This document shows, one piece after another, positions 9,495-29,508 of a DNA stretch of 32,462 nt (the stretch's first letter is position 1; each line of letters opens with the position of its first letter). A model generated the notes under the pieces. It was not told the origin of the DNA and did no database searches. It saw only the letters and a list, made by a program, of their open reading frames with translations. Both the position numbers and the translations under genes were made by a program. This DNA is from a virus. The DNA lies in UHGV virus genome UHGV-0221239; one strand, 5' to 3'.

Positions 9495-10325
9495 ACCGGA
9501 CTCCTCCTGCGATCCCTTCTGATACTGTCATCAGCATTACGTCATCCTCCGTCATGTCCGCCACATCCGGGGAAGCGGGGATAACTTCATTCCCGTCCGG
9601 GCCAAAGCGGACGCCTCCGGCAAGCCCTGCCGCTTTCTGCATCAGCACATCATCTTCAGGCTCTTCGTCAGCCTCGCGCCGGTTCAGCAGACTGAAATCC
9701 AGCGGATGCATATCCGGATCGCTGAAAAACAGGCTGAGTACGGTGTACGTCAGCCCGGAAAAGTGCATATCCAGCAGAACATCATGAAAATAATGGGTAC
9801 TGTAAAAGCGGTGCCAGTCGGCATACTCCGTGGATGACATCCCGGCAAGCATGGCGCGCCAGTCGGGTCGCCCCATCTCACGCGCCAGTTTCAGGGCAAA
9901 ACTCAGCTCACCGTCGAACACTTTCCCGCAGAAACAGGCTCTGCTGGCCCGGCGTCATCTGCCTGTTCAGGTGCATCATTCACAACAAACTCAGACATAC
10001 CGGACAGACGCATTACCACATTTTCAGCCTGAGCAATTGCCTCTGTGGGCCAGGTGGTAAGCACTTCCTGCTCAATTTGTTTAACGGCTTCATTCATGGA
10101 CGGCATCTTTGTCTTCTGCGGATGGCTATGCCACAGGGACATCGCCACCAGAAAAGCACCGGTTCTGACGAGATCTTCCACGCTCACCTGTCGATTGAGA
10201 CTGGATCCCGCCTGTTCTGCCTGTCGTTTCAGCAGGGCGAGATGCTCAATTCGCTGCAGGGCTGACAGTTCAGAAAGCGTGACGCTCACACCGTTATATT
10301 CAAATGATTCGGTTTTCAGGAACAT
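9487..10325 (-). CDS. T: Tail assembly chaperone G-T fusion, made by programmed -1 frameshift from the G frame into the T frame
   Basis: G ORF (9903-10325) and overlapping -1 frame ORF (9487-9921) joined at the heptamer G GGA AAG; the shifted frame reads GKVFDGELSFALKLAREMGRPDW..., exactly the T ORF in the track. Confidence 0.8.
9903..10325 (-). CDS. G: Tail assembly chaperone G, 140 aa
   Basis: ORF MFLKTESFEYNGVSVTLSELSALQRIEHLALLKRQAEQAG...; ends ...AGKCSTVS just after the slippery site. Confidence 0.9.
   Translation of the reverse strand: MFLKTESFEYNGVSVTLSELSALQRIEHLALLKRQAEQAGSSLNRQVSVEDLVRTGAFLVAMSLWHSHPQKTKMPSMNEAVKQIEQEVLTTWPTEAIAQAENVVMRLSGMSEFVVNDAPEQADDAGPAEPVSAGKCSTVS
9921..9927 (-). 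other. Programmed -1 ribosomal frameshift slippery heptamer (G GGA AAG on the minus strand)
   Basis: Plus-strand ctttccc at 9921-9927 is GGGAAAG on the coding strand, 16 nt before the G stop; the -1 frame continues into the 144-aa T ORF. Confidence 0.75.
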
Positions 10326-10340
10326 CGCTGACTCTCCGGA

Positions 10341-11081
10341 TTAACTGTCGGTGACGGTGATTTCTGCAACCACAGCAAGTTCACCATTACCGGATACAAC
10401 CGGAATGTTGACCTTGCCTGCAGCAACACCTTTCACGGTGATGGTCATACCACTGACCGACACGGTGGCTTTTGTTTTATCCGCAGACACCGCACGGAAG
10501 CTCTTGTCGGTTGCGCCTTCCGGCTGGAATGCCACGGTCAGCGTGGTGCTCTGCCCTTTCACCACCGAAGTGCTGGCAGGCGTCACGGTCATGCCGGTTG
10601 CCGCTGTTACCGTGCTGCGATCTTCTGCCATCGACGGACGTCCCACATTGGTGACCTTCACCGTGCGGGTAATCACTTCCTTCGCCGTCACCGCCTTACC
10701 GATACTGCTGACCCAGCCACGGAACACATCGACCGTGCCGTTCGGGAAGCGGATTTTATAGGCACGGGTATCACCTTCATTAAACCACGCCAGCAGCGCC
10801 TGCTGCCCCTGCTCTCCGGGCATCCACGCCAGCGTGAAGCTGGTATCTCCGGCAGATTTCTGCCCCTGCCCGGTCGCAGTCCAGTCTGCATCTTTATCAT
10901 CGAGATAGCTGTCGTCATAGGACTCAGCGGTCAGTTCGCCGGGCGTCAGGTCTTTAACTTTTGCCAGACGCGACCAGTCAACGTCTGAAAGCGGGTTCGC
11001 ATAAGGGTCACCGCTCCCCTTATAAACCCACAGGGTGGTCCCGGCACCTTTCACCGGCATTGTAGGATTTGGTACAGGCAT
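10341..11081 (-). CDS. V: Major tail tube protein V, 246 aa
   Basis: ORF in the track starts 10 codons upstream; start refined to [26 protein letters not shown]..., which has a GAGGA Shine-Dalgarno; C-terminal Ig-like region. Confidence 0.9.
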
Positions 11082-11088
11082 AGCGTCC

Positions 11089-11484
11089 TCACATTTCATA
11101 GGTAATGACATAAGTCAGATCGGCTGAACTCCACAGGCCCGCATCATCGTCGCGCCGGTAGTCATAGCCACTGGCCACCATACTGGTGATCAAATCTGAC
11201 AGTGCCGGGATATCGCTCATCACCGGATAAATCCGGGACTCCATCCACGCATCCAGCTCTGAATCCGGCACCTGAGCAGGCAGGAAAACTTCAATATGCA
11301 GCTCCGCCTGCCAGGTATCGCTGTCCAGCTCTTCGCCCGTGTATTCAGCGCCGGTGAGATAAACGGCAATTGCCGGAAAATCTTCCTCATCAAAAACAGC
11401 GGGGCGACCATCAAAAAGCGTCGCCCCGGTGTCATGCTTCTCCAGTGCATCCAGTACGGCTGCACGGAGTTCAGTATGTTTCAT
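11089..11484 (-). CDS. U: Tail terminator protein U, 131 aa
   Basis: [53 protein letters not shown]...; lambda gene order. Confidence 0.9.
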
Positions 11485-12059
11485 CGCTTTATTACCATCC
11501 TCAGTTGATGCTGCAGCGCATAGCCCAGCTCTTTCGGAAGACGCTCACGCCGTATCCGCTCAATATTCTGTTTAAACGCCGTGGTCAGCGGCACCGCCAT
11601 CGGGATTTTCACCACATCAATGGGGTAACGGTTTTTCCCGGCCACACGCTGCATGACATGCCAGCGGCCATTTTTCAGTTGCTGAATAAACGCGCCGGGA
11701 ATACGACGGTTTCCCACCACAAGCACGCTGCCGCCACCTTTCAGGGCTGAACGCTGCCCCTTTTTACGACGCCTGCGTCGGGACAGGACAATCCGCGCGT
11801 TACCCAGCTTTATTACGGGCAAATCCCCCCGGTTAACCTTGATTCTGGCCTGCGGATTTTTGACCGTGGCCCTTTTCAGCCTGGCCCTTTCCTTTACCAG
11901 TTTCCGGCGTACCTTTGTCTCACGGGCAACCTGTGACGCCGACTGCGATATCGCGGATGAAGCAACGCGGTTAATAGCCATTGCGGCGGCACCGGGCACC
12001 GCCGCTCTGCTGATACGACTGAGGTTTTCAACGGCCTGCTCAAGACCTTTTATGGCCAT
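11481..12059 (-). CDS. Z: Tail completion protein Z, 192 aa
   Basis: ORF MAIKGLEQAVENLSRISRAAVPGAAAMAINRVASSAISQSASQVARETKV...; overlaps the U start. Confidence 0.9.
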   Translation of the reverse strand: MAIKGLEQAVENLSRISRAAVPGAAAMAINRVASSAISQSASQVARETKVRRKLVKERARLKRATVKNPQARIKVNRGDLPVIKLGNARIVLSRRRRRKKGQRSALKGGGSVLVVGNRRIPGAFIQQLKNGRWHVMQRVAGKNRYPIDVVKIPMAVPLTTAFKQNIERIRRERLPKELGYALQHQLRMVIKR

Positions 12060-12070
12060 ACATCCCCCTT

Positions 12071-12424
12071 TCAGCGGCGACGGTTAACGGCAGGCGGTAC
12101 GCCCCGCCCAAGCCAGAGATGACAGCTTCCGCCATCATCCGGCGAAATCCGGTCTATCCAGAAGTTTTCCTCACCGATGGTCAGCGTGTCGCCGCGCCGC
12201 AGCTGCCGCACATCATCAGTCCGGACAAACAGGGACGGGCTGGAGCCTTCAACGCGCACGCCCTGTCCGGCATAGCTGATATTTTCAGGGTCATCAAAAA
12301 CACCACGTATCACAGCACCGGACTGCTCACCGGATGTCATGGTGGCTGACGTTCCCATGTACCCGCGTATCGTTTCATCGGCGCGGGCAATGGCAGCATC
12401 GAACAGGTTATCGAAATCAGCCAC
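12071..12424 (-). CDS. FII: Head-tail joining protein FII, 117 aa
   Basis: ORF MADFDNLFDAAIARADETIRGYMGTSA...; the track start is a GTG codon. Confidence 0.85.
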   Translation of the reverse strand: MADFDNLFDAAIARADETIRGYMGTSATMTSGEQSGAVIRGVFDDPENISYAGQGVRVEGSSPSLFVRTDDVRQLRRGDTLTIGEENFWIDRISPDDGGSCHLWLGRGVPPAVNRRR

Positions 12425-12435
12425 AGCGCCTCCCG

Positions 12436-12831
12436 TTATTGCATTCTGGCCAGGCCGCGCTCTGTCATTTCAGCTGACACACCGGCAGAGACACGGAACG
12501 CCGTTCCCGGCAGCACAAATGCCACAGCCTCATCCCGCGTGGCGTGAAGTGCATCAGTATGCAGCGTCACCAGTGCCACAACCGTGACCAGATCAGCCGT
12601 ATCAGTCACGGTATCCGGCTGCGCTGATACAACCTCATTTTCATGTCCGGTCAGCGCATTTTCCGGGCTGACAGATGTGTCCTGACCGGCAGCGTCATCC
12701 GTGTCATCAAGCTCCTCTTCCAGCTCTGCCACACGGAGCACCAGTTCTTCTTTCGTCCCCGTCAGGCTGACATCACGGTTCAGTTGCTCACCCAGCACCT
12801 GAAGACGGGCAATCAGTTCATCTTTCGTCAT
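12436..12831 (-). CDS. FI: DNA packaging protein FI, 132 aa
   Basis: Start refined to the in-frame ATG giving MTKDELIARLQVLGEQLNRDVSLTGTKEEL..., preceded by GAGGAG; the track ORF begins 13 codons upstream. Confidence 0.85.
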   Translation of the reverse strand: MTKDELIARLQVLGEQLNRDVSLTGTKEELVLRVAELEEELDDTDDAAGQDTSVSPENALTGHENEVVSAQPDTVTDTADLVTVVALVTLHTDALHATRDEAVAFVLPGTAFRVSAGVSAEMTERGLARMQ

Positions 12832-12872
12832 AGACTCCTCCACAGAGAGAAAATGGCCCCGAAGGGCCATGA

Positions 12873-13898
12873 TTACGCCAGTTGTACGGACACGAACGCA
12901 TCAGGGTCAGCCAGCAGCATCAGCGGTGCTGACTGAATCATGGTGAACTCACGCGCCGGATCGCCGGTGGTCACCCAGTTTTTCGGGTAGCGGGCAGAGG
13001 CGTTAATACCTTCGCGCTGTGCGTCCGCATCCTGAATGCAGCCATAGGTGCGCAGACCGCGTGCCTGAGTGTTCCCCAGCACCATCGAGTTGTCCGGAAG
13101 GAAGTTCTTTTTGACGTCGTTTTCCACGTACTGTCCGGAATACACGACGATCGCCGTATCGCCATACATCCCCTTATAGGACACCGCTTCGCCCAGGTCT
13201 TTTACCGCTGTCTCCAGCTCGGAATTAGAGCCGCGACGGGTATCCAGCTTCTCCTTGACGGCTTTGAAGGAACGGAACAGCGCCCAGCCTTTCGGATCAA
13301 ACACGATGATATTCACCACTCCGCTGGCGTTCAGCGCATAGGCTTCGATATCGTCGGTCGGGTCATACGTGGACTTGTCACGCTTGCTCCACTCCGTACC
13401 ACCGGACTGTGTGATGTTGTTCGCCGCACTGCGGCCCATATCCACCTCAACCGGATCGAAGGCTTCACCGGTCATGGTGTATTTGCCCTTAAGCACAGCA
13501 GAAACTGCCTGCATCTCTTCGACCTGAGCAATGGCCAGCTCTTCGTCTCGCATGTTCTGCATGATGATGCGACGGCGGCGGTAAGCCGGGTCCGCCAGAT
13601 TCTGCGGATCTTCATCCGGCAGGCGACGCAGGGTCATCTGCGGATTCACCTCATGCTTCGGCTTGACATATCCCGGTGTAAATTCAGAGGTGGAGCCGCC
13701 ACGGGAGCGGATAACCTCACCGGAAACAATCGGCGAAACGTACAGCGCCATGTTTACCAGTCCCGGAATTTGTGAGAGATAGACTTTCTCCGTGATGAAG
13801 GGATAGCTCTCACGGAAAAAGAGACGCAGAAACAGCGGATCAAACTTAAATTTCTTCTCATTTGCCGCCAGCAGCTGGGCGGTTGTGTACATCGACAT
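12873..13898 (-). CDS. E: Major capsid protein E, 341 aa
   Basis: Start refined to MSMYTTAQLLAANEKKFKFDPLFLRLFFRESYPF...; characteristic lambda gpE sequence. Confidence 0.95.
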   Translation of the reverse strand: MSMYTTAQLLAANEKKFKFDPLFLRLFFRESYPFITEKVYLSQIPGLVNMALYVSPIVSGEVIRSRGGSTSEFTPGYVKPKHEVNPQMTLRRLPDEDPQNLADPAYRRRRIIMQNMRDEELAIAQVEEMQAVSAVLKGKYTMTGEAFDPVEVDMGRSAANNITQSGGTEWSKRDKSTYDPTDDIEAYALNASGVVNIIVFDPKGWALFRSFKAVKEKLDTRRGSNSELETAVKDLGEAVSYKGMYGDTAIVVYSGQYVENDVKKNFLPDNSMVLGNTQARGLRTYGCIQDADAQREGINASARYPKNWVTTGDPAREFTMIQSAPLMLLADPDAFVSVQLA

Positions 13899-13953
13899 AA
13901 AAAAATCCCGTAAAAAAAGCCGCACAGGCGGCCTTTAGTGATGAAGGGTAAGG

Positions 13954-14286
13954 TTAAACGATGCTGATTGCCGTTCCGGCAAACGCGGTCCGTTTTTTCG
14001 TCTCGTCGCTGGCAGCCTCCGGCCAGAGCACATCCTCATAACGGAACGTGCCGGACTTGTAGAACGTCAGCGTGGTGCTGGTCTGGTCAGCATCAACCGC
14101 CAGAATGCCAACGGCAGTACCGTCGGTGGTGCCATCCCACGCAACCAGCTTACGGGTGGAGGTGTCCAGCATCAGCGGGGTCATTGCAGGCGCTTTCGCA
14201 CTCAATCCGCCGGGCGCGGTTGCCGTATGTGCCGGGTCACTGTTGCCCAGCGGCTGGTAATGGGTAAAGGTTTCTTTGCTCGTCAT
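13954..14286 (-). CDS. D: Head decoration protein D, 110 aa
   Basis: Start refined to [43 protein letters not shown]... Confidence 0.9.
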
Positions 14287-14295
14287 AAACATCCC

Positions 14296-15595
14296 TTACA
14301 CTGGTGTGTTCAGCAAATCGTTAACGGCATCAGATGCCGGGTTACCTGCAGCCAGCGGTGCCGGTGCCCCCTGCATCAGACGATCCAGCGCAGTGTCACT
14401 GCGCGCCTGTGCACTCTGTGGTGCAGCTGCCAGAATGCGGCGGGCCGTTTCCACGGTCATACCGGGGGTTTCTGCCAGCACGCGGGCCTGTACTTCGCGT
14501 CCGTGAGCCTCCTCACAGTTGAGGATCCCCATAATGCGGCTGTTTTCTGCCGCAACCGCAGCGGTGATCTGCGCGTTCACGTCCGGCTGCGCCGCGCTGG
14601 CGTTTTCGCCCTCCGTCGCTGGCACCACGTCAGTAACGTCAGTCTGCGAAGCAGTGGCTGAAACAGTTGTTGATTGAGTCTCTTTGGTCATTCGCCCTCC
14701 TGAGAGACGGGATTTACGCGCATCCAGTGCATCACGCATGACGGTGATCGCATCGGTGCTGTTAACAAGTTCATCAGCCAGTCCGGCATCAATGGCCTCC
14801 TGACCGCTGTACACTGCAGCCTCGGTATCCAGCACAGCCTGCACAGACAGGCCGGTATATGCCGACACCTTCTGCGCAAACATCTGGCGGGTTGCGTCCA
14901 TCCGGGACTGCAGTGTCTCCCGGACGTCATCCGGAAGATGGCTGTAGGGATTGCCATCCACCTTATGGCTGCCGCTGTAAATCAGCGTGATTTCCACACC
15001 CTGTTTCTCCAGGGCAGCACCGTAATTACTGTGAGCCATCATGACGCCGATGGAGCCTGTCCGGGCGGTCTGCGTGACCAGACGCCGGGAGGCGGCACTG
15101 GCAAGCAGCTGACCTGCACTGCAGTTCATGTCGTTGGCCAGCGCCCATACCGGTTTTATGTCTCGCACACGGGCGATGATGTCAGCGCAGTCAAATGCCC
15201 CCGCCACCATTCCGCCTGGCGTGTCCATATCGAGCAGAATGCCGTCCACCATCGGGTCGCTGGCAGCCTGTTGCAGACGGGCGATAATGCCGTTGTAACC
15301 GGTCATCCCCGAGTACGGCTGCAGCGCCCGCGTCCGGCTGACCAGCGTGCCGGACACCGGCAGCACGGCGATGCCGTTCATGACCTGATAACTGCGGGCC
15401 TGTCGTGGTCCGTCATCATCACCGGATAATGCCAGCGTCGCGAGTGCCTCCTGGGCAGTCAGGCTGTCGCCGGACACCGCATCCGTCAGGCGGCTGATCC
15501 CAAGCTGGCCTGCAAGCGCACAAAAGAAAACCCGCGCATAGGCGGGTTCAAGCATCAGCGGCTCATTAAAGGCCATGCTGGCAATATGCGGGAGA

Positions 15596-15615
<20 letters not shown>
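14296..15615 (-). CDS. C: Head maturation protease / scaffold C, 439 aa, GTG start; the Nu3 scaffold is expected in-frame within its 3' part
   Basis: ORF region reading (V)TAELRNLPHIASMAFNEPLMLEPAYARVFF...; GTG start preceded by a GGAGGAG Shine-Dalgarno; S49-type protease motifs. The track ORF extends 49 codons further upstream into B. Confidence 0.85.
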
Positions 15616-19296
<3,681 letters not shown>

Positions 19297-19322
<26 letters not shown>

Positions 19323-19842
19323 TCAGCAACCCCGGTATCAGTTCATCCAGCGCGGCTGCTTTGTTCATGGCTTTGATGATATCCCGTTTCAGGAAATCAA
19401 CATGTCGGTTTTCCAGTTCCGGAAAACGCCGCTGCACCGACAGGGGGATCCCGTCGAGAATACTGGCAATTTCACCTGCGATCCGCGACAACACGAAAGT
19501 ACAGAATGCGGTTTCCACCACTTCAGCGGAGTCTCTGGCATTCTTCAGTTCCTGTGCGTCGGCCTGCGCACGCGTAAGTCGATGGCGTTCGTACTCAATA
19601 GTCCCTGGCTGGAGATCTGCCTCGCTGGCCTGCCGCAGTTCTTCAACCTCCCGGCGCAGCTTTTCGTTCTCAATTTCAGCATCCCTTTCGGCATACCATT
19701 TTATGACGGCGGCAGAGTCATAAAGCACCTCATTACCCTTGCCACCGCCTCGCAGAACGGGCATTCCCTGTTCCTGCCAGTTCTGAATGGTACGGATACT
19801 CGCACCGAAAATGTCAGCCAGCTGCTTTTTGTTGACTTCCAT
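19297..19842 (-). CDS. nu1: Terminase small subunit Nu1, 181 aa
   Basis: ORF MEVNKKQLADIFGASIRTIQNWQEQGMPVLRGGGKGNEVLYDSAAVIKWY... with an N-terminal helix-turn-helix; immediately downstream of cos. Confidence 0.95.
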
Positions 19843-20019
19843 TGTTCATTCCACGGACAAAAACAGAGAAAGGAAACGACAGAGGCCAAAAAGCTCGCTT
19901 TCAGCACCTGTCGTTTCCTTTCTTTTCAGAGGGTATTTTAAATAAAAACATTAAGTTACGACGAAGAAGAACGGAAATGCCTTAAACCGGAAAATTTTCA
20001 TAAATAGCGAAAACCCGCG

Positions 20020-20031
20020 AGGTCGCCGCCC
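20020..20031 (-). other. cos: cosN, the 12-nt cohesive-end site; the cosB region lies at 19843-20019 and cosQ side at 20032-20060
   Basis: Plus-strand aggtcgccgccc is the reverse complement of the lambda cohesive end GGGCGGCGACCT; the flanking sequence (cgcgggttttcgctatttatgaaaattttccggtttaagg... on the minus strand) matches the lambda left end as I recall it. Confidence 0.85.
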
Positions 20032-20230
20032 CGTAACCTGTCGGATCGCCGGAAAGGACCCGAAAAATGATAATAATTATCATCTGCATGTCACAACGTG
20101 CATCTACGCCATCAAACCACGTCAAATAATCAATTATGACGCAGGTATCATATTAATTGATCTGCATCAACTTAACGTAAAAACAACTTCAGACAATACA
20201 AATCAGCGACACTGAATACGGGACAACCTC

Positions 20231-20464
20231 ATGTCAACGAAGAACAGAACCCGCAGAACAACAACCCGCAACATCCGCTTTCCTAACCAAATGATTGAAC
20301 AAATTAACATCGCTCTTGATCAAAAAGGGTCCGGGAATTTCTCAGCCTGGGTCATTGAAGCCTGCCGCCGAAGACTGTGCTCAGAAAAAAGAGTTTCGCC
20401 TGAAGCAAACAAAGAAAAGAGTGACATTACTGAATTGCTCAGAAAGCAGGTCAGACCAGATTGA
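20231..20464 (+). CDS. Small ribbon-helix-helix (Arc/CopG-like) DNA-binding protein, 77 aa; possibly YlcI/DUF3950-like
   Basis: ORF MSTKNRTRRTTTRNIRFPNQMIEQINIALDQKGSGNFSAWVIEACRRRL...: basic N-terminus, a beta strand then two helices with a G-rich turn, the RHH pattern. Family name from memory only. Confidence 0.55.
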   Translation: MSTKNRTRRTTTRNIRFPNQMIEQINIALDQKGSGNFSAWVIEACRRRLCSEKRVSPEANKEKSDITELLRKQVRPD

Positions 20465-20521
20465 AGCAATTTAGATAATCGTGCAGACTAGGTACCTTCA
20501 TATCACATGGAAGGTACTACA

Positions 20522-20932
20522 ATGGCTCAGGTTGCCATTTTTAAACAAATATTCGATAAAGTGCGAAATAATTTAAACTATCACTGGTTTTATTCTGAAC
20601 TAAAACGTCACAATGTCTCACATTACATTTACTATTTAGCCACAGAGAATATTCATCTTGTTCTTGAAAACGATAATACGGTTTTAATAAAAGGACAGGG
20701 TAAGGTTGTAAATGTAAGATTTTCAAAAAATAAATGCCTTATAGAAGCCACATTAAAAGGATTCAAATCAGGAGAGTTATCATTTTACGAATACAGGAAA
20801 AATCTTGCTACAGCAGGGGTTTTCAGATGGATTACAAATATCCACGAAAACAAAAGGTATTACTATACCTTTGATAATTCATTACTCTTTACTGAGAACA
20901 TTCAGAACACTACACAAATATTTCCGCACTAA
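20522..20932 (+). CDS. Hypothetical phage protein, 136 aa; possibly YbcV/DUF1398-like
   Basis: ORF refined to start at [30 protein letters not shown]... with GGAAGG upstream; AT-rich codon usage unlike the neighbouring structural genes. Family assignment is tentative. Confidence 0.55.
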
Positions 20933-21610
20933 ATCATAACGTCCGGTTTCTTCCGTGCCAGAACCGGACTCGCTGGCATGATGAAATATGTGTACCCGGT
21001 AACCCCGGTGTGCATCGTTTTTGATTATTCCCGCACACTCGCGCAGAAGGAGTTCCCCGTCGGGCTACGGTCTCTGTTAATACGGGAATACGGCGACGAT
21101 ACAGCGCATGATGTGTCAGGCTTGAATACCTTTATCCTTTAAAAGGGATATCAGTTAAGTTATCCCGTGTAGGGTATAAGCCATTATCAAAGCCACTCTG
21201 TAGGGAATGGCTTTTGTGATGGCATCACTTACTCTTTACGCTGCTATCCCACTCATCCCGGAATTTTGATGGGTTATTGAAACCTTCTGCTGACATAACA
21301 ACTCCTTCAATGTTTGGCTGAAATTAGGATGTCTTTCCATCAGTCCGCCACCACAAAGAATCTTTTTTGCCATAAGGCAGGAGGTTCATCTTTCAGTGGC
21401 TGCCGGTGTTATTTCCCCACTTACTGGCTTGGGTTGTTTCGTGGTACTGCCGTTAACTGGTGGCGCACAGATTTAGTTAAATCCGTTCTCGCCTGAACTA
21501 TCTTTTACATACCCGGATTGTGGGGATGTAAATCACGGTTTCATTATCAAGCCCACCAGTAGATGGGCTTTGTAATGAAGAGTTGTTATGAAAATTGCTC
21601 TAAACAAGCA

Positions 21611-22099
21611 TTAATAGCTATCAGAAGTAATCGCTACAGATTTCAATCCCTCAATGTCATCCTTGGACAGGGCGAACCATTCACCGTGCTTTCTCTTTGC
21701 GGCAAATTTGCGATGAAGCATGTTTTCAGTTTCTCTTCCACCAGGGATCAGGCACTCAAGCTTCAAGCAGTCTGGTCCAGAGTTGCCAAGCGATTTGATG
21801 CGTTGTGGAATGTTGGATGAATACCCAATTTTGGTTAGCCCAGTTTTCTTCGATGACAAAACGTATACCTGAGGAGGTTCTTTTCTCTGGTCTTCCATTA
21901 CACGTCTCATTGTTGCCATAAGTCCGCCGTGCATCAGCATTTCAACAAAGAACGCTGACCGAACACCTGACGACTTAAGCATGCCAGAAAATTCACTTGC
22001 CAATTCCATTAACTCTGCGATGTTTTCAGGAACTTTTTGGCAGTTATCTTCCTTGTATAAGGAAATCATTCTTTGAAGCTTTTCTTCTAATTGGTTCAT
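21611..22099 (-). CDS. T5orf172 / GIY-YIG-like domain protein, 162 aa from the ATG (174 aa from the upstream GTG in the track)
   Basis: C-terminal half PQVYVLSSKKTGLTKIGYSSNIPQRIKSLGNSGPD...ENMLHRKFAAKRKHGEWFALSKDDIEGL fits the T5orf172 (MUG113) motif pattern (YVL..., KIG-T, R, E..LH..F, GEWF); N-terminal roughly 85 aa are of unknown function. Confidence 0.7.
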   Translation of the reverse strand: MNQLEEKLQRMISLYKEDNCQKVPENIAELMELASEFSGMLKSSGVRSAFFVEMLMHGGLMATMRRVMEDQRKEPPQVYVLSSKKTGLTKIGYSSNIPQRIKSLGNSGPDCLKLECLIPGGRETENMLHRKFAAKRKHGEWFALSKDDIEGLKSVAITSDSY

Positions 22100-22248
22100 A
22101 GCGTCTTTACCTTTTAGAAAGTGAGCCTGTCTCACAGAAAAGCCGCCCCGAGATGGTCGCCACCATATACGGCAGTTCTCAGGCTCAACTTTCTGAAAGG
22201 CTCGGGTGATGCAATATGCGCGTGAGATGCGCTGTGAAATTCAGATGT

Positions 22249-22272
22249 AAAAAAAGCCCCGCATCGCGAGGC
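22249..22272 (-). terminator. Rho-independent terminator downstream of Rz
   Basis: Hairpin gcctcgc-gat-gcggggc (one G-U pair) followed by seven U on the minus strand; separates the lysis operon from the T5orf172 gene. Confidence 0.6.
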
Positions 22273-22304
22273 TCATTAAATGGACTTTGTGATTTGCAAA
22301 AAAA

Positions 22305-22763
22305 TTATTTCAGGCATTGCGTCCTGATGTATTCCTGCAGGTAGTTAACCTGCGCGGTTATCTTGTCGATTCCACTTCGGAGACGGTAATAATTGAGTTC
22401 AGCATCTGCTGTAAGTCCTGGGCTTTCTCCATCGCCCATGCCGCTGGTTCCGGTCGTTGACTTTGCACAGGTGGCGGCGACTTGCAGGCGCTTACGCCCA
22501 GCAGAAACATCAGCACGGAGACTTTCGATAGTCGCGTTAGCATCAGCAAGCTCCTTTGTGTATCTTGCGTCGAGTTCTGCTACATCACGTTGACGCTTCC
22601 GCATGTCAGCGATGGTGGCGTTCGCCTTCTCCAGTTCACTGGCCTTGTTATCGCGCTGCTCTTTGTAGGCGATTGCGTTATCACGGTAATGATTAACAGC
22701 CAATGACAGGCAGACGATGATGCAGATAACCAGAGCGGAGATAATCGCGGTTACTCTGCTCAT
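22305..22763 (-). CDS. Rz: Spanin inner-membrane subunit Rz (i-spanin), 153 aa
   Basis: Start refined to [39 protein letters not shown]...: N-terminal TM helix plus coiled-coil; contains the embedded Rz1 frame. Confidence 0.85.
22358..22543 (-). CDS. Rz1: Spanin outer-membrane lipoprotein Rz1 (o-spanin), embedded in the +1 frame of Rz
   Basis: [39 protein letters not shown]...: lipobox (VSAC) followed by a proline-rich segment, entirely inside Rz. Confidence 0.7.
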
Positions 22764-23257
22764 TGTTTCCCCCACAAACAGACTTCACGCTCAATCTCAC
22801 GGCGAGTCATCAGTCCTTTCCATTGATTACCGCCAGCGTATGTCCAGCGCCGTAGCTGATCACATGCGCCTTTAATATCACCCTGGTTTATTTTGCGAAG
22901 AAGCGTCGATGTTCTGAAATTGCCAGCACCCACGTTGTAGACGAACGAGTAAAGAGCGCCGCGCGTTGTTTCCGGTATATCGACTTTGATGTACCGGTTA
23001 ATTTGTCTGGCGACAGTGGCAAGGTCTTTATTCAGGAGGGCTTTGCACTCTGCTTCGGTATACGTTTTACCGGGAATGATGTCTTTTCCTGTATGCCCGT
23101 AACATACAGTCCATACACCAACTATGTCTTTGTAAGGATTATGTCTCACACCTTCCAGACCATCGTTACCACTTGGGCCAGTGATTAACACAGATGCTAT
23201 AGCAATAGCCCCGCCACCAATAGCAGCAGCAACAGCTTTTCGTAATGATGGAGGCAT
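22760..23257 (-). CDS. R: SAR endolysin (phage 21 R-type lysozyme, GH24), 165 aa
   Basis: [40 protein letters not shown]...: Gly/Ala-rich signal-anchor-release domain followed by a T4-lysozyme-like domain. Confidence 0.9.
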
Positions 23258-23472
23258 TATTCACCTCTCGCAGCCTTGCGCTTATCTTCTTTAATCTTGA
23301 AATAAAGGTTTGTCAGGTACGTCAGCAGGCCAAATACCAGGCTACCCAGCACACCTATTGCTGCCCACTGTGAGGGCGTGACTTTATCGAGCAGCTGTAA
23401 AAACCAGTACCCGGCACTACCTGCTGAGGTGCCATAGGCGACACCCGTTGTTAACTTATCCATGGATTTCAT
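23257..23472 (-). CDS. S: Pinholin (phage 21 S-type holin), 71 aa, dual-start motif MKSMDK
   Basis: [74 protein letters not shown]: two TM segments, charged C-terminus, Met1 and Met4 starts. Confidence 0.9.
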
Positions 23473-23583
23473 AACCCCACCTCGCAGACAAAGCGGGTGT
23501 AAATTGAGGGAATACTACGAAACGTAACAGACTCGGAGTCAGTGAATAACTCAGGTATTGGGTTATCAGCTAATATCGAGACT

Positions 23584-23617
23584 CAAAAAATGGAAAAACC
23601 CGCTCGACGGCGGGTTT
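23584..23617 (-). terminator. Candidate tR'-like terminator upstream of the lysis genes; the late promoter is expected just upstream on the minus strand
   Basis: Hairpin aaacccgc-cgtcga-gcgggttt followed on the minus strand by UUCCAUUUUUUGAG, about 110-145 nt upstream of the S start, inside the AT-rich 23473-24045 region. Confidence 0.45.
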
Positions 23618-24045
23618 AAGCTGTGTGACGAAGTAACCACTCTTAACAGCATAACCAATTTTTTACGTACGTAAACCACTAAATGATATTTGCGAGAATG
23701 CTACCGAGTATTGAAAACACCACTACAAATACATAAGCAAATCTCAACAAATAACCAACAAATAATTTCCAGCGTTATTTTTAGCCAATTTAAATTGAAC
23801 CTTCAAATTATAGAGCACTTATAAATAACAGCCGTTAATATAAATTGGCTAATAGATTTATTTTTATTCAGCCAAGAGCTATGAATAGGATTCGATAGAA
23901 AAAAGTTCAGATAAAAATAGAGATCTACTTCACAAATCAAACGAGAAACCAAAACTTACATCTTGAAATAATCACATTGATTAGATGAATATTTATCGCG
24001 CAGTGACATCATTTTTTAATAATAGTTCAAAAAAAAGGGCTCACG

Positions 24046-25143
24046 ATGAAAAAATTAACAGTGGCAATTTCTGCTGTAGCTGCATCAGTACTGATGGCGA
24101 TGTCTGCTCAGGCAGCTGAAATTTATAATAAAGACAGTAACAAGCTGGATCTGTACGGGAAAGTTAATGCTAAGCACTACTTCTCCTCTAATGATGCAGA
24201 TGATGGTGATACTACTTATGCCCGTCTTGGCTTCAAAGGTGAAACCCAAATCAACGATCAACTGACTGGTTTCGGTCAGTGGGAATATGAATTCAAAGGC
24301 AACCGCGCTGAATCTCAAGGTTCCTCCAAAGACAAAACCCGTCTTGCATTTGCAGGCCTGAAATTCGGTGACTACGGCTCAATCGATTACGGCCGTAACT
24401 ACGGTGTAGCATACGACATCGGTGCGTGGACTGACGTTCTGCCAGAATTCGGTGGCGATACCTGGACCCAAACAGATGTGTTCATGACTGGTCGCACCAC
24501 TGGTGTTGCAACCTATCGTAACAACGACTTCTTTGGTCTGGTTGATGGTCTGAACTTTGCTGCTCAGTACCAAGGCAAAAACGATCGTAGCGATTTCGAT
24601 AACTACACTGAAGGTAACGGTGATGGCTTCGGTTTCTCTGCTACCTATGAATACGAAGGATTCGGTATCGGTGCAACTTATGCGAAATCTGATCGTACCG
24701 ACACTCAAGTTAATGCAGGGAAAGTTCTTCCTGAAGTATTTGCTTCCGGTAAAAATGCAGAAGTTTGGGCCGCAGGTCTGAAATATGACGCTAACAACAT
24801 TTACCTGGCCACTACCTATTCTGAAACCCAGAATATGACTGTATTTGCTGATCACTTCGTTGCTAATAAAGCCCAAAACTTCGAAGCTGTTGCACAATAT
24901 CAGTTCGATTTCGGTCTGCGTCCGTCCGTTGCTTACCTGCAATCTAAAGGTAAGGATCTTGGAGTATGGGGCGATCAGGACTTAGTCAAATATGTTGATG
25001 TAGGTGCAACCTATTACTTCAACAAAAATATGTCTACTTTCGTTGATTACAAAATCAACCTGCTTGACAAAAATGACTTCACTAAAGCACTCGGTGTAAG
25101 CACTGATGACATCGTTGCTGTAGGTCTGGTTTACCAGTTCTAA
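24046..25143 (+). CDS. nmpC: Outer-membrane general porin of the OmpC/OmpF/NmpC/Lc family, 365 aa, intact
   Basis: [49 protein letters not shown]...GLVYQF with signal peptide and C-terminal beta-barrel signature ending in F; opposite strand to the flanking Q and lysis genes, as for nmpC in DLP12 and Lc in phage PA-2. Confidence 0.9.
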
Positions 25144-25305
25144 TCTGATTACGAAAAAGATATGTTGCGGGAGGCGTTGCCTCCCCAACATATAAGTGGC
25201 TCCCTCAAGCCACTTCCTTTAGAAGCACAACCTTGCTTCTAACTATATAAACCTTCTGTTATATATTACCCTTTATTTTTGGGGGCGTCTCAACGCCCCA
25301 TTTTT
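25144..25305 (+). ncRNA. ipeX: Structured 3' UTR of the porin gene, candidate IpeX-like sRNA
   Basis: Roughly 160 nt between the porin stop and its terminator contain three consecutive stem-loops (atatgttgcgggagg.../aagtggct...agccactt/agaagca...tgcttct). IpeX is described as lying between the nmpC stop and its terminator; identity not verified by alignment. Confidence 0.4.
25281..25305 (+). terminator. Rho-independent terminator of the porin transcript
   Basis: ggggcg-tctcaa-cgcccc hairpin followed by ATTTTT. Confidence 0.7.
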
Positions 25306-25332
25306 AATAATTTTTAGTAAACAATTGGCATA

Positions 25333-25707
25333 TTAATTAGAGTTATTAACAACGATATCCATCTCTAACCGGATATCTAATGCCATTAACATCCCTTCAA
25401 TTATGCCCTCAGCCTTCTGTAACCTTTTCCCGATATAACCATCAGAGCAGCAATGCTTACCTGCCAGTGACATGAATGTCATACCGACTACATAATAATC
25501 TACTAATAAATCGTGCAAATCGCTGTTGTTCTTTTTCAGACGGGCCATGCACCCGCAAATGATCATCGCGTCATCGTCACAACATTGCGGGCGAGATTTT
25601 ACTTTTGAAGGAATTAATCCCTTAAACCAGACCGCTGATTTTGAAGATAATGACTTCAGCGGCAAACGCTCCCTGATGGAGTCTGTCGAAGCGAAGATCA
25701 AAGACAT
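25333..25707 (-). CDS. Q-like late antiterminator (QuuD-like), 124 aa from the first ATG; its first 28 codons lie inside an inverted-repeat copy
   Basis: C-terminal ...[83 protein letters not shown] with Cys clusters; position between the early genes and the porin/lysis block as for quuD. No Shine-Dalgarno precedes the ATG in this orientation. Confidence 0.5.
25624..25697. repeat. Inverted repeat, copy 1 (74 bp perfect; 87 bp with 2 mismatches), partner at 26075-26148
   Basis: The plus-strand sequence aaaccagaccgctgattttgaagataatgacttcagcggcaaacgctccctgatggagtctgtcgaagcgaaga is the exact reverse complement of 26075-26148. Confidence 0.9.
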
Positions 25708-25933
25708 TATGCCAGTGACATTTGAATTTAAATGCGTTCCGTTTGAAGGTCTGAAAGAACGTCCGTTTAAATTACGCCTCAGCATTATCACTGGCGATCG
25801 TCCTGTACTTGTTCTGCGCATTATTCAGCTGGAGGCGGTGCAGGAAGAAATGGCTAACGAATTTCGCGATCTGCTTGTTGAGAAATTCAAAGACAGCAAA
25901 GTAGAAACCTTTATTGGTACTTTCACCGCCTGA
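25624..25933 (+). pseudogene. Displaced 3' portion of the yfdQ-like gene (repeat-encoded residues plus 74 C-terminal codons), inverted relative to its 5' part
   Basis: Plus-strand frame reads [28 protein letters not shown] then [74 protein letters not shown]; the same [24 protein letters not shown] segment ends the minus-strand gene at 26016-26663. Confidence 0.6.
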
Positions 25934-26015: not shown

Positions 26016-26663
26016 TTACCAGAATTCAGTGCGGTGCAGCGCAAATAACGTGGAGAACAAAATGATGTCTTTGGTCTTCGCTTCGACAGACTCCATCAGG
26101 GAGCGTTTGCCGCTGAAGTCATTATCTTCAAAATCAGCGGTCTGGTTTGCTTCAATCGTGATTTTACGGACAGCCGCAGCCGCTTTTGTTGCCTGGATAG
26201 CGTCACCATTAGCATCAAAACCCACAAGGTAGTCGGCCCAGTCTTCAATCCATTCTGCCAGTGACTTCTGGGAGTTACGCTCGCTGTTAACAGACAACAG
26301 TGCAGAGAACGGTGCTGTCTTTTTCAGTTTGAGAGTGGCGGTGTTATCTGCGTGACCTGGTTCATCAATAGTACCCAGGTTAAGCACACTGACGGCACGC
26401 ATATTATCAGCATCGATAAAGCAGCGGGTGCCTTCATCTGCAAGATCTTTAGAATAACGGGTAAAGTCATCGATGCTGGCAGTGGAAAGCGCACCACGGA
26501 AACGGAAGCGATTTAAATTAAATTTTTCCAGATCATGAATGCGGAAATTCTCAGGCAATGCTACAGCATCGGCACCAATCTTACTGATAATTTCATTAAC
26601 ACCCTGAGCAGAAATAATAGCATGGATTTGATTAATTGCGGTTGCGTCTAAGTTCTGAGACAT
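26016..26663 (-). pseudogene. yfdQ-like (DUF2303-like) phage gene, 5' part; reading frame leaves the family-like sequence after the inverted repeat and stops 15 codons later
   Basis: [51 protein letters not shown]... with GAGGA Shine-Dalgarno; after ...SVEAKTKDI it reads [15 protein letters not shown], while the plausible continuation is on the other strand at 25698-25933. Confidence 0.6.
26075..26148. repeat. Inverted repeat, copy 2 (partner of 25624-25697)
   Basis: Exact reverse complement of 25624-25697; coordinates cross-checked against the codon positions of both ORFs. Confidence 0.9.
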
Positions 26664-26728
26664 AATAAGTCCTCACTATATAAAGATATTCAGTGATGAG
26701 ATAAATAATCAGTTAATTAAGAACGATA

Positions 26729-27091
26729 TTAATGACCTGCTGCGCGGAGTTTTCCGTCAGGTTCACCGGCAAGAGTCAGTAATTGTCCCTGGTCTTCCTG
26801 CAGAATAGTCAGGCGACCACCGCGATTGACATACATCGGCGTTTCGGTGGTGTCTTCTTCAGAAATTTTCCCGCGGTTAGTCGGGCGAACATATGAGAGT
26901 TTGTGTTTGATTTTCACTCGGTTCTCATCAAATGGTTCGATTTCCAGGTTGAGTGAGACCTTACCTTTGGTTTTCGTGTTCATCACACCGGAAGCGACTT
27001 CACTGAGAACTGCGCCGATTTTGGTTTCAAATACGCCGCCGTCCAGCTCCCCGATAAATGCCTGCACATCAGTACTGCGTTCGCTAGCCAT
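26729..27091 (-). CDS. Hypothetical phage protein, 120 aa (YfdP-like)
   Basis: Start refined to MASERSTDVQAFIGELDGGVFETKIGAVLSEVASGVMNTK... with GAGGAG 8 nt upstream; the track ORF extends 106 codons further upstream into non-coding-looking sequence. Confidence 0.7.
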   Translation of the reverse strand: MASERSTDVQAFIGELDGGVFETKIGAVLSEVASGVMNTKTKGKVSLNLEIEPFDENRVKIKHKLSYVRPTNRGKISEEDTTETPMYVNRGGRLTILQEDQGQLLTLAGEPDGKLRAAGH

Positions 27092-27139
27092 TTTGCTGCT
27101 CCTCATCATATCGACCCTGCAAGGCCGATTAGTTTCTCC

Positions 27140-27272
27140 ACAAAACAGAGAAGAACACCTGCGGTGGCAGCCGCCCGGATGGATTGAGTTATGAGCCCGT
27201 CGTCCGGTGATGCTCTTCTCTGTTTTGTAAAAAGGACGGTACCAGCCGGAAGCAAGGGTACAAGCTGGTACC
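27140..27272. other. Structured GC-rich non-coding region: 15-bp inverted repeat (27140-27154 / 27214-27228, 59-nt spacer) plus a 9-bp-stem hairpin (27238-27272)
   Basis: caaaacagagaaga ... tcttctctgttttg, and ggtaccagc-N17-gctggtacc; the hairpin loop carries gggtacaag, resembling the operator half-site GGTACAAG found at 29110-29117. Confidence 0.5.
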
Positions 27273-27492
27273 GCCAAGACTACACACAGCATAAAGTTGT
27301 GGTGCCGGGTGCCTCCCGGTGCCTGGCGAAGGTTGCACACCAGGCGGGTGGGTATCCACAGAAGGTCGACTGTCAGCCTCAACCTTAACCCGCGTGCGCT
27401 GAGCAGCATTCACCACAACGCTAAGGATTCTCTCTGGTTGAAAATACTTAGCTGTTATGTGCCTGCTTTTAGCCACATCAGGCGAGGTGGAC

Positions 27493-27544
27493 CTGGTTAT
27501 TCCCCAACAACAAGGATTCGGTTAATCTGGTTATCCCCAACAAC
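27493..27544 (+). promoter_or_regulatory. Two direct repeats (CTGGTTAT(T)CCCCAACAAC) 34 bp apart, 15-65 bp upstream of the 144-aa gene
   Basis: 27493-27512 ctggttattccccaacaaca and 27527-27544 ctggttatccccaacaac; followed by AAGGA and ATG at 27560. Confidence 0.5.
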
Positions 27545-27559
27545 GCAAAAGGAAAAGAA

Positions 27560-27994
27560 ATGTCCGGTAATATCTACACGTTGTACAAATCCCACTGTGA
27601 AAATGTTGGAAAGTATCGGGGCATTGAAATCAGTGGGGTAGTGTCATCAGTCGAAATAAGCAAAGTGGAATCAAGGGCAACATTACTTACTCTTCTGGAT
27701 CTTGTCTTACATGAGCACCGGAAGAAATTCGGCACTCCCTATAATCAGTTGAATGGGAAAAAGGCTCTGGTTCACCTTATTCTGATGAAGCATCACTGGA
27801 TGCCAAAACAGATTAATGAGATGAAATTTGATGAACTTCTTCTTTCAATTCAGGATGAACTCACACTTGATAAAATAAGCGTAACCGCCCAGAAATTTTT
27901 AGATTATCGAGACTGGAGATCACAAATTCATCACTTTGATGATTTTGACGAAAATGAATGGGATCCTAATTTGTCTGCACAATATCTAAAGTAA
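27560..27994 (+). CDS. Hypothetical protein, 144 aa, no family recognised
   Basis: ORF MSGNIYTLYKSHCENVGKYRGIEISGVVSSVEISKVESRATLLTLLDLVL... with AAGGA Shine-Dalgarno at -6; AT-rich codon usage; 3' end overlaps the convergent 68-aa gene by about 29 bp. Confidence 0.65.
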   Translation: MSGNIYTLYKSHCENVGKYRGIEISGVVSSVEISKVESRATLLTLLDLVLHEHRKKFGTPYNQLNGKKALVHLILMKHHWMPKQINEMKFDELLLSIQDELTLDKISVTAQKFLDYRDWRSQIHHFDDFDENEWDPNLSAQYLK

Positions 27995-28172
27995 CATCCT
28001 GTGATAAAACCGTGATTTCCTGATCCAGTTTTTTTAAGGAGTCTATTGTTTCCTGTCGATAAGACAGCACTTCACGAAGCTGGTTTATAGCTGCCAGCTT
28101 CTTTGCCATCCACTCGTAAATTTCCTCATTTGTGTATCCGGGCGCGACGATTTTGGGTTCTGTTTTGTGCAT
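27966..28172 (-). CDS. Small hypothetical coiled-coil protein, 68 aa, downstream of the repressor gene
   Basis: Refined start MHKTEPKIVAPGYTNEEIYEWMAKKLAAINQLREVLSYRQETIDSLKKLDQEI... with GGAGG 8 nt upstream (the track ORF begins at a TTG 5 codons earlier). Confidence 0.6.
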   Translation of the reverse strand: MHKTEPKIVAPGYTNEEIYEWMAKKLAAINQLREVLSYRQETIDSLKKLDQEITVLSQDVTLDIVQTN

Positions 28173-28406
28173 TTCACACCTCCTCAAGTTATCAGTTACT
28201 TGTTGATGGGGACCAGATTGTTAAAGAGCTAAGCGTCCTGTAGGGCGCTTTTTTGTTGCTAACGAATCATCCTGGACTTCATATGCCCCAGGCGGCTACT
28301 TCGTGGGCGTCCTGCCTGTTTGTTGTTTCTCTTAGGTACATTATGTATCTCAAGGGTACATTGTCAAGTATAAAAAAACCTGCCGAAGCAGGTTCATAAA
28401 CATTGA

Positions 28407-29081
28407 TTAGGCTTTGATTTTGTATCTTCTTGGTTTTCCTGAGAAAATCACAGTTCCAATTATAGAGCAATTACCGTTGATCTTAATGTAAGGCTCAGGC
28501 CAGTTTGGGTTTAACGCTTTGAGATAACGCTGTGTCCCATCTTCTATCAACCTTTTGAAGGTGGTTTCACCTGTATCGTGCATCAATGCAATAACGTCGT
28601 CACCGTGGCAGGCAGGTACTTCAGGATCGACAAAAATCATGTCTCCCGGGCGGTACTCATCAATCATTGAATCACCTATCACCCGCAAGATATAAGTCAT
28701 TTCCCCACAGGGTACAGGGCAGGGATACGTTTCTGCTGTGCTCAAATCAACCTCAGAATATCCAACTTCTTTCCATGCTCCGGCCTGTACCCATGATATG
28801 ACAGGGACTAATGTGATTTGTTTATTAGTGATTGAAAAATCAGGTTTTTTTGTGATGTTCGTTGTCTGGTGTTCTTGATCGAGCCATCCGACAGGCAGGT
28901 CGAAACATTTTTCGATGTGTCGTGCCATGTTGTCACCGATATTTTTAGTAGCACCATCTCCCATAAACCTGCTGGTCTGGGTTGGCTCGCGATCAATCAT
29001 AGTGGCAAAGGAAGAATTCCCGCCAACACCATCTCTCAGTTTTCTGGCGTTAGACCGCCGGATGTCATGGATTGTTTTCAT
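28407..29081 (-). CDS. cI: CI-like prophage repressor with C-terminal S24 (LexA-like) peptidase domain, 224 aa
   Basis: ORF MKTIHDIRRSNARKLRDGVGG... with N-terminal HTH and C-terminal ...VISWVQAGAW...LRVIGDSMIDEYRPGDMIFVDPE...GDDVIAL...TTFKRL... autocleavage-domain pattern; divergent from a Cro-like gene across palindromic operators. Confidence 0.85.
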   Translation of the reverse strand: MKTIHDIRRSNARKLRDGVGGNSSFATMIDREPTQTSRFMGDGATKNIGDNMARHIEKCFDLPVGWLDQEHQTTNITKKPDFSITNKQITLVPVISWVQAGAWKEVGYSEVDLSTAETYPCPVPCGEMTYILRVIGDSMIDEYRPGDMIFVDPEVPACHGDDVIALMHDTGETTFKRLIEDGTQRYLKALNPNWPEPYIKINGNCSIIGTVIFSGKPRRYKIKA

Positions 29082-29096
29082 AACGAAATTAAAACC

Positions 29097-29117
29097 CTTG
29101 TACCGTTAAGGTACAAG
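29097..29117. promoter_or_regulatory. Operator palindrome on the repressor-promoter side (CTTGTACC-GTTAA-GGTACAAG)
   Basis: Perfect 8-bp half-sites with TGTAC-N7-GTACA spacing, 16 bp upstream of the cI start codon. Confidence 0.6.
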
Positions 29118-29145
29118 TATCTTGAAGGTTCATTTCAATCATGTA

Positions 29146-29168
29146 ATATGTACACCGGAGGTACATAT
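29146..29168. promoter_or_regulatory. Operator palindrome on the cro-promoter side (ATATGTAC-ACCGGAG-GTACATAT), overlapping a candidate -10
   Basis: Same TGTAC-N7-GTACA geometry; candidate promoter TTGAAG (29122-29127), 16-nt spacer, TAATAT (29144-29149) reading toward cro. Confidence 0.6.
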
Positions 29169-29171
29169 TGT

Positions 29172-29372
29172 ATGAAAGCGTATTGGGACTCTTTAACCAA
29201 AGAACAGCAGGGCGAGTTGGCCGGAAAAGTTGGCTCAACACCTGGCTACTTACGGCTGGTTTTCAATGGCTATAAAAAAGCCAGTTTTGTGCTGGCTAAA
29301 AAACTTGAGCAATGCACGTCAGGTGCAATTACGAAATCTGACTTAAGACCGGATATCTATCCGAAAGATTAG
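29172..29372 (+). CDS. cro: Cro-like small DNA-binding protein, 66 aa
   Basis: Refined [69 protein letters not shown], divergent from cI, GGAGG upstream. The track ORF 28869-29372 begins far upstream inside the operator region. Confidence 0.7.
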
Positions 29373-29508
29373 CAGAACACTTTCAATTTTTAACCACAGA
29401 ACGATGAGGCTAATCGTGGGTATCTGGGGCGACACCGTTGTTGAGTGTGTGCTTAACAAACTCTGCCCGTCGCATACCTACGTAATTTTTAAATATCCGG
29501 AGTAATCC

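Follow-up and report, generated by a model that had tools for sequence, protein, structure and literature searches.

The closest described relatives of the locus analysed here are the nmpC porin gene of DLP12 (qsr′), a cryptic prophage of Escherichia coli K-12, and the lc porin gene of phage PA-2. DLP12 also carries a small RNA, IpeX, that represses ompC and ompF (PMC5069750); the RNA arises from the phage porin promoter within the porin transcript and is processed from a precursor, and its effect on ompC is not solely due to complementarity (PMC12197685). In phage PA-2 the same RNA lowers OmpC and OmpF, an effect reported in PA-2 lysogens, where it is present in single copy (PMC8065619). The nmpC mRNA is in turn a target of RybB (PMC3333887), and uropathogenic strain CFT073 strongly favours its nmpC copies at 37 °C, in both RNA and protein, and favours ompC at 23 °C (PMC12890032). 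Among clinical isolates, the amount of ipeX for the most part failed to follow that of OmpC.

A second prophage regulatory RNA likewise neighbours a member of the same Q gene family: StxS, the pR′-tR′ leader RNA of Stx phages. dRNA-seq placed the pR′ start of these phages 258 nt before the 3′ end that Term-seq defined at tR′, and this start was described as "closely associated with Q" (PMC7547250). StxS derives from the late-promoter leader and is read from the phage strand, whereas IpeX is derived from the 3′-terminal part of a moron mRNA read from the other strand; the two RNAs have no sequence similarity.

The stretch of DNA analysed here (the window) is the whole 32,462-nt sequence of UHGV virus genome UHGV-0221239. 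Positions 9793–25626 share 99.9% identity with the prophage at the argU site in strain L73; that prophage is annotated with intact structural genes. Our analysis indicates that the region between the lysis genes and Q (Table 1) is very probably the nmpC/lc-ipeX moron of a lambdoid prophage of the DLP12/PA-2 type, a self-contained transcription unit read from the strand opposite to the phage genes. Judged by its sequence it is an ordinary example of a porin and IpeX already described in such prophages; the porin gene, the RNA, their position and the proposed effect on host porins have all been published. The identity of porin and IpeX to characterised genes, the intactness of the gene and the structure of the RNA are direct observations from the window.

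Table 1. Features of the porin region and its surroundings (window coordinates; multipart entries list their members under remarks)
Feature	Position	Strand	Remarks
Lysis cassette	22305–23472	−	essD 23472–23257 (S21-type holin); rrrD 23257–22760 (endolysin); Rz 22775–22305 with embedded Rz1
Intrinsic terminator-like hairpin with T-run	23596–23617	−	Consensus scan; conserved with Stx2 phage
Homologue of the Stx-phage late promoter pR′	23648–23675	−	TTTACG (23675–23670), 16-nt spacing, TATGCT (23653–23648); assigned by homology only
AT-rich region upstream of the porin gene	23677–24045	+	Nearly identical to PA-2 and K-12
nmpC/lc-type general porin gene	24046–25143	+	Intact, 365 aa, ATG to TAA
IpeX, RNA derived from the 3′ UTR	25141–25307	+	167 nt; 167/167 identical to K-12 ipeX
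IpeX stem-loop 1 (SL1)	25160–25193	+	15 bp with one bulge; RNA fold
IpeX stem-loop 2 (SL2)	25194–25215	+	8 bp; RNA fold
IpeX stem-loop 3 (SL3)	25219–25242	+	9 bp; RNA fold
Weak A/U-only hairpin	25244–25265	+	Doubtful significance; minimum free energy structure
Rho-independent terminator of the porin/IpeX transcript	25282–25305	+	GGGGCGT-CTCA-ACGCCCC (25282–25299), then ATTTTT; fold and consensus scan
quuD (Q antiterminator, PF06530) remnant	25333–25626	−	3′ 97 codons kept; first 30 codons and everything upstream deleted

A sequence-only reading had proposed a complete porin of the OmpC/NmpC/Lc family at this site, and the homology searches bear this out. The reading frame has neither an internal stop nor an IS5 insertion, and its product covers the whole of the Pfam profile Porin_1 (PF00267; positions 1–337 of 337, 522 bits, E = 1e-156). 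It scores 526.5 bits against the NCBIfam subfamily model NF007841, "porin OmpC" (cutoff 484), and falls below the equivalog cutoffs of both PhoE and OmpF in the same profile search. A signal peptide of 23 residues (24046–24114), matching the sig_peptide annotated for Lc in the PA-2 record, is followed by AEIY, and the protein ends in LVYQF, the aromatic last residue being an outer-membrane targeting signal. Identity is about 99% to both characterised homologs: 363 of 365 residues are shared with PA-2 Lc (the differences are R99H and V154F) and 344 of 346 with the first fragment of K-12 NmpC. General porins form trimers of 16-stranded β-barrels that act as diffusion channels, an architecture to be expected here at such identity to a characterised porin. 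The protein is the same throughout as that translated from the L73 and KSC9 loci, annotated in RefSeq as WP_000737266.1. Chromosomal OmpC, OmpF and PhoE, together with Salmonella OmpD, belong to the same Pfam family; unlike these porins, the one described here is phage-borne and has the IpeX UTR.

The gene order also agrees with that of the two reference systems, as the earlier reading had held. In PA-2 (GenBank J02580.1) a 1861-nt module is 98.8% identical and has the same orientation relative to the lysis genes, with 16 extra bases near the S gene; in K-12 DLP12 the order is likewise quuD, ipeX/nmpC on the opposite strand, and then essD, rrrD and rzpD. The order of essD, an opposite-strand porin gene and quuD is common to K-12 DLP12, L73, KSC9, phage 434B and more than 35 sequenced phages. 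The differences concern intactness: K-12 nmpC is split by IS5 after codon 346 and the porin gene here is uninterrupted, whereas quuD is complete in K-12 and truncated here; and PA-2 is an active phage, whereas the prophage in the window lacks the 5′ end of Q and the early region. The proposed placement of the porin gene between Q and the lysis genes, on the opposite strand, thus holds for location and strand, but Q is present only as a remnant.

The 1861-nt module is widespread: of 5426 complete E. coli genomes, 3756 contain a match, and in 2465 (roughly half of the total) at least 80% of the module is covered; it also occurs in 43 phage records, among them PA-2 and the λ-434 hybrid 434B, which picked up qsr′. 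A pattern scan for the IpeX core, made with one genome per species, returned E. coli records only, plus one 442-nt contig (NZ_VJYK02000722.1). This contig is labelled Streptomyces alkaliterrae and matches the core exactly; it is probably E. coli contamination.

Directly upstream of the porin gene the DNA is AT-rich: the intergenic region between essD and the porin gene (23473–24045) has 34.4% GC, compared with 51.9% in the window. The porin gene had been credited with an AT-rich promoter region of its own; the composition is as described, but a consensus scan revealed no strong or consensus sigma-70 promoter in front of the gene. CRP site 2 of the PA-2 record maps to 23917–23937.

Downstream, 189 nt separate the porin and quuD stop codons; this spacer matches its K-12 DLP12 counterpart at 100% identity, and 192 of 192 nt from the porin stop codon onward are shared with PA-2. 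K-12 ipeX occupies 574365–574531 on the reverse strand (167 nt; supplement of PMC8313858), and these coordinates were carried to the window through the gapless alignment of the two spacers. The RNA so defined begins with the T of the porin TAA codon (25141) and ends with the T-run of the terminator, so the 3′ UTR lies at the location described for IpeX, as had been suspected before any alignment. Three strong hairpins precede the terminator in the predicted fold, as had also been anticipated, with one further weak A/U hairpin, and the transcription unit has an intrinsic terminator of its own. The latter is the one + strand intrinsic terminator that a consensus scan detected downstream of the porin gene, and it lies 25 nt from the quuD stop codon. 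The fold of 25141–25310 has a free energy of −62.9 kcal/mol, compared with −30.8 ± 3.6 kcal/mol for dinucleotide shuffles (z = −8.98), and none of 200 shuffles folds as well; the structure therefore exceeds chance expectation. Since the porin gene is uninterrupted, co-transcription of porin and IpeX is possible in this prophage; in K-12, IS5 intervenes.

Variation in the RNA is slight. In an alignment of the nine versions found in phages no compensatory pairs were seen; the few changes fall in loops, appear as G-U pairs or mismatches, or shorten SL2. Because this variation is so small and not compensatory, covariation neither supports nor refutes the structure. A search with Rfam 15 gave no family at gathering score in the whole window, nor at E ≤ 1 in 23450–25400; the only two matches were at chance level. 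This result says nothing against the identity of IpeX, for which there is apparently no Rfam model. The RefSeq record of K-12 also leaves ipeX unannotated, although other small RNAs such as micF are annotated; with neither source naming it, the feature looks unannotated, and automated pipelines label the stretch only as "porin". Recording IpeX here is thus of use for annotation. Moreover, an intact nmpC-ipeX unit may alter the permeability of the outer membrane, the phage receptors and the entry of antibiotics, and is relevant to strain phenotype.

The late promoter of the prophage appears to lie downstream of the porin cassette, where the − strand is homologous to the pR′ region of Stx phages. 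In Stx2 phage II, 258 nt counted back from the T-run of tR′ leads to a point 7 nt past a promoter (TTTACG-16-TATCAT) that overlaps the Q stop codon; this distance was used in place of the published Sakai pR′ start, which falls inside Q in NC_002695.2, probably through a version offset. The 83 nt directly 3′ of Stx2 Q align to window positions 23676–23594 (−), with 77% identity over the BLAST match, and comprise the promoter, the conserved first 25 transcribed bases and the hairpin that follows. The corresponding promoter and leader hairpin in the window lie about 170 nt upstream of essD. Homology to pR′ predicts a late start near 23641 (−) and puts the hairpin some 25 nt inside the leader, with about 120 nt between it and essD further downstream. 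QuuD shares 78–81% identity with Stx-phage Q. In those phages pR′ overlaps the Q stop codon, whereas here the cassette (~23677–25332) would separate Q from pR′; with pR′ at 23675–23648 the cassette would not lie inside the late transcript, and late transcription would therefore not read across it antisense. A pR′ and leader antisense to IpeX, within the spacer between quuD and the porin gene, was also considered and rejected, as that spacer contains no good hexamers and the pR′ homologue is found elsewhere. The 1986 PA-2 record annotates two CRP sites, and the one other than site 2 corresponds to 23621–23641, on the conserved pR′ leader.

The Q gene next to the porin is not intact in the window. 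Homology to quuD of K-12 and L73 ends at 25626, and the remnant spans only positions 31–118 of PF06530, whereas K-12 QuuD, a complete protein of about 127 aa, spans positions 1–118. Full-length K-12 QuuD is distantly similar to the Q21 protein of PDB entries 6JNX and 6P18. Immediately to the right, at 25627–25933, a yfdQ (DUF2303) gene is represented on the + strand by its 3′ part, and the junction 25626|25627 is thus a head-to-head meeting of two genes truncated at their 5′ ends. The early, immunity and replication region of the prophage is missing at this point, and exactly such a junction would result if the entire early region between the rightward and the leftward operon were deleted; a comparable but smaller deletion, which leaves quuD intact, is present in KSC9. 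The junction occurs in no complete E. coli genome of the collection, and a look-up of the ORF that spans it returned no exact product on record. Having lost the first 30 codons of quuD, the prophage cannot make its own Q and is unable to turn on its late genes by itself. With the early region gone as well, the porin-IpeX unit is among the few parts still able to act alone.

Further rearrangement is visible to the right of this junction. Two yfdQ fragments that overlap in sequence and point in opposite directions form an 87-nt inverted repeat (25624–25710 and 26062–26148, 98% complementary). The sequence switches at 26061|26062, with a 3-nt ATG microhomology at the start of yfdR, to the early-left region of an icd-adjacent type of prophage, and 26062–29422 is 99.94% identical to strain S1-SRL-01-C, in which the prophage of that type sits next to icd. 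This second junction was seen in no complete E. coli genome, and a look-up turned up no exact counterpart of the truncated 215-aa YfdQ; the junction could reflect either a genuine illegitimate rearrangement or a chimeric assembly.

By analogy with the published systems, the AT-rich upstream region would drive the porin gene, and the porin mRNA would end in the 167-nt structured 3′ UTR closed by the intrinsic terminator. The UTR would then be released from the porin transcript as IpeX and would lower production of host OmpC and OmpF after transcription, as published work proposes for this RNA, and a cell turning the unit on would exchange its host porins for the phage porin. For the present strain, expression, processing and repression of OmpC and OmpF are carried over from the literature and may be expected rather than read from the DNA. 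It is rather unlikely, in our view, that porin and UTR are real but transcriptionally silent in the host, for example through silencing of AT-rich DNA, and leave host porins unaffected under ordinary conditions. The low GC content of the upstream region and its want of a good sigma-70 match would fit such silence, as would the mostly independent levels of ipeX and OmpC in clinical isolates; a 1998 paper by Prilipov et al. is reported, by its title, to call the intact nmpC of E. coli B "quiescent". The upstream region is, however, nearly identical to that of PA-2, whose lysogens reportedly reduce OmpC and OmpF through IpeX (PMC8065619), and the nmpC copies of CFT073 are strongly expressed at 37 °C (PMC12890032).

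How IpeX would act bears on a further alternative, in which the spacer hairpins serve mainly to insulate the convergent porin (+) and Q (−) transcripts and regulation by IpeX is a side effect of multicopy expression. A windowed RNA-RNA search against the leaders (−120 to +90) of ompC and ompF gave best energies of −24.5 and −21.1 kcal/mol, compared with −22.2 ± 2.4 and −20.2 ± 2.5 kcal/mol for shuffled IpeX, and is thus not above chance for either target; duplexes computed over the whole length of IpeX were meaningless global pairings, and the windowed search was used in their place. This lack of complementarity is consistent with the literature and also with insulation. The original IpeX paper, of Castillo-Keller et al. 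in 2006, is said to have found the RNA as a multicopy suppressor. Read on the − strand, the 15-bp SL1 hairpin is followed by CUUUUUCG (25159–25152) and therefore resembles a terminator for transcripts leaving quuD, which it could terminate; on the + strand, the proximity of the porin terminator to the quuD stop codon also fits an insulating role. SL2 and SL3 are nevertheless unneeded for termination on either strand, yet the spacer that contains them is 93–100% identical across 36 phage records, more conserved than the whole module (down to 88%), and the effect in PA-2 lysogens was reported for a single copy (PMC8065619). We consider insulation as the main function improbable. It is scarcely credible that the ORF and the hairpins arose by chance or represent a decayed pseudogene: the full Pfam match (E = 1e-156), the 99% identity to characterised proteins and the fold (z = −9) refute this.

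The nmpC/lc-ipeX moron thus accounts best for the region, and a bolder version of this reading can be put forward tentatively, though we would sooner doubt than assume it. The cassette may have been inserted exactly between the Q stop codon and the −35 element of pR′, with hairpins that work on both strands, SL1 doubling as the terminator of the Q transcript, and it may survive in this truncated prophage as a domesticated module for switching host porins.

The position after Q may also be a recurrent slot for opposite-strand morons, since phage 1H12 (2879–3559) has a different gene in reverse orientation, encoding the lipocalin Blc, directly after a Q that is 87.5% identical to QuuD. Two differences were noted in and beyond the lysis genes. 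An ORF of 174 aa (21611–22135, −) occupies the place of borD in K-12 DLP12, and its L73 counterpart carries the annotation "GIY-YIG nuclease family protein". In L73 an IS3-family element lies in Rz, at 12769–14076 of the L73 locus; the window has no element at the corresponding site (~22556–22560), and Rz is uninterrupted.
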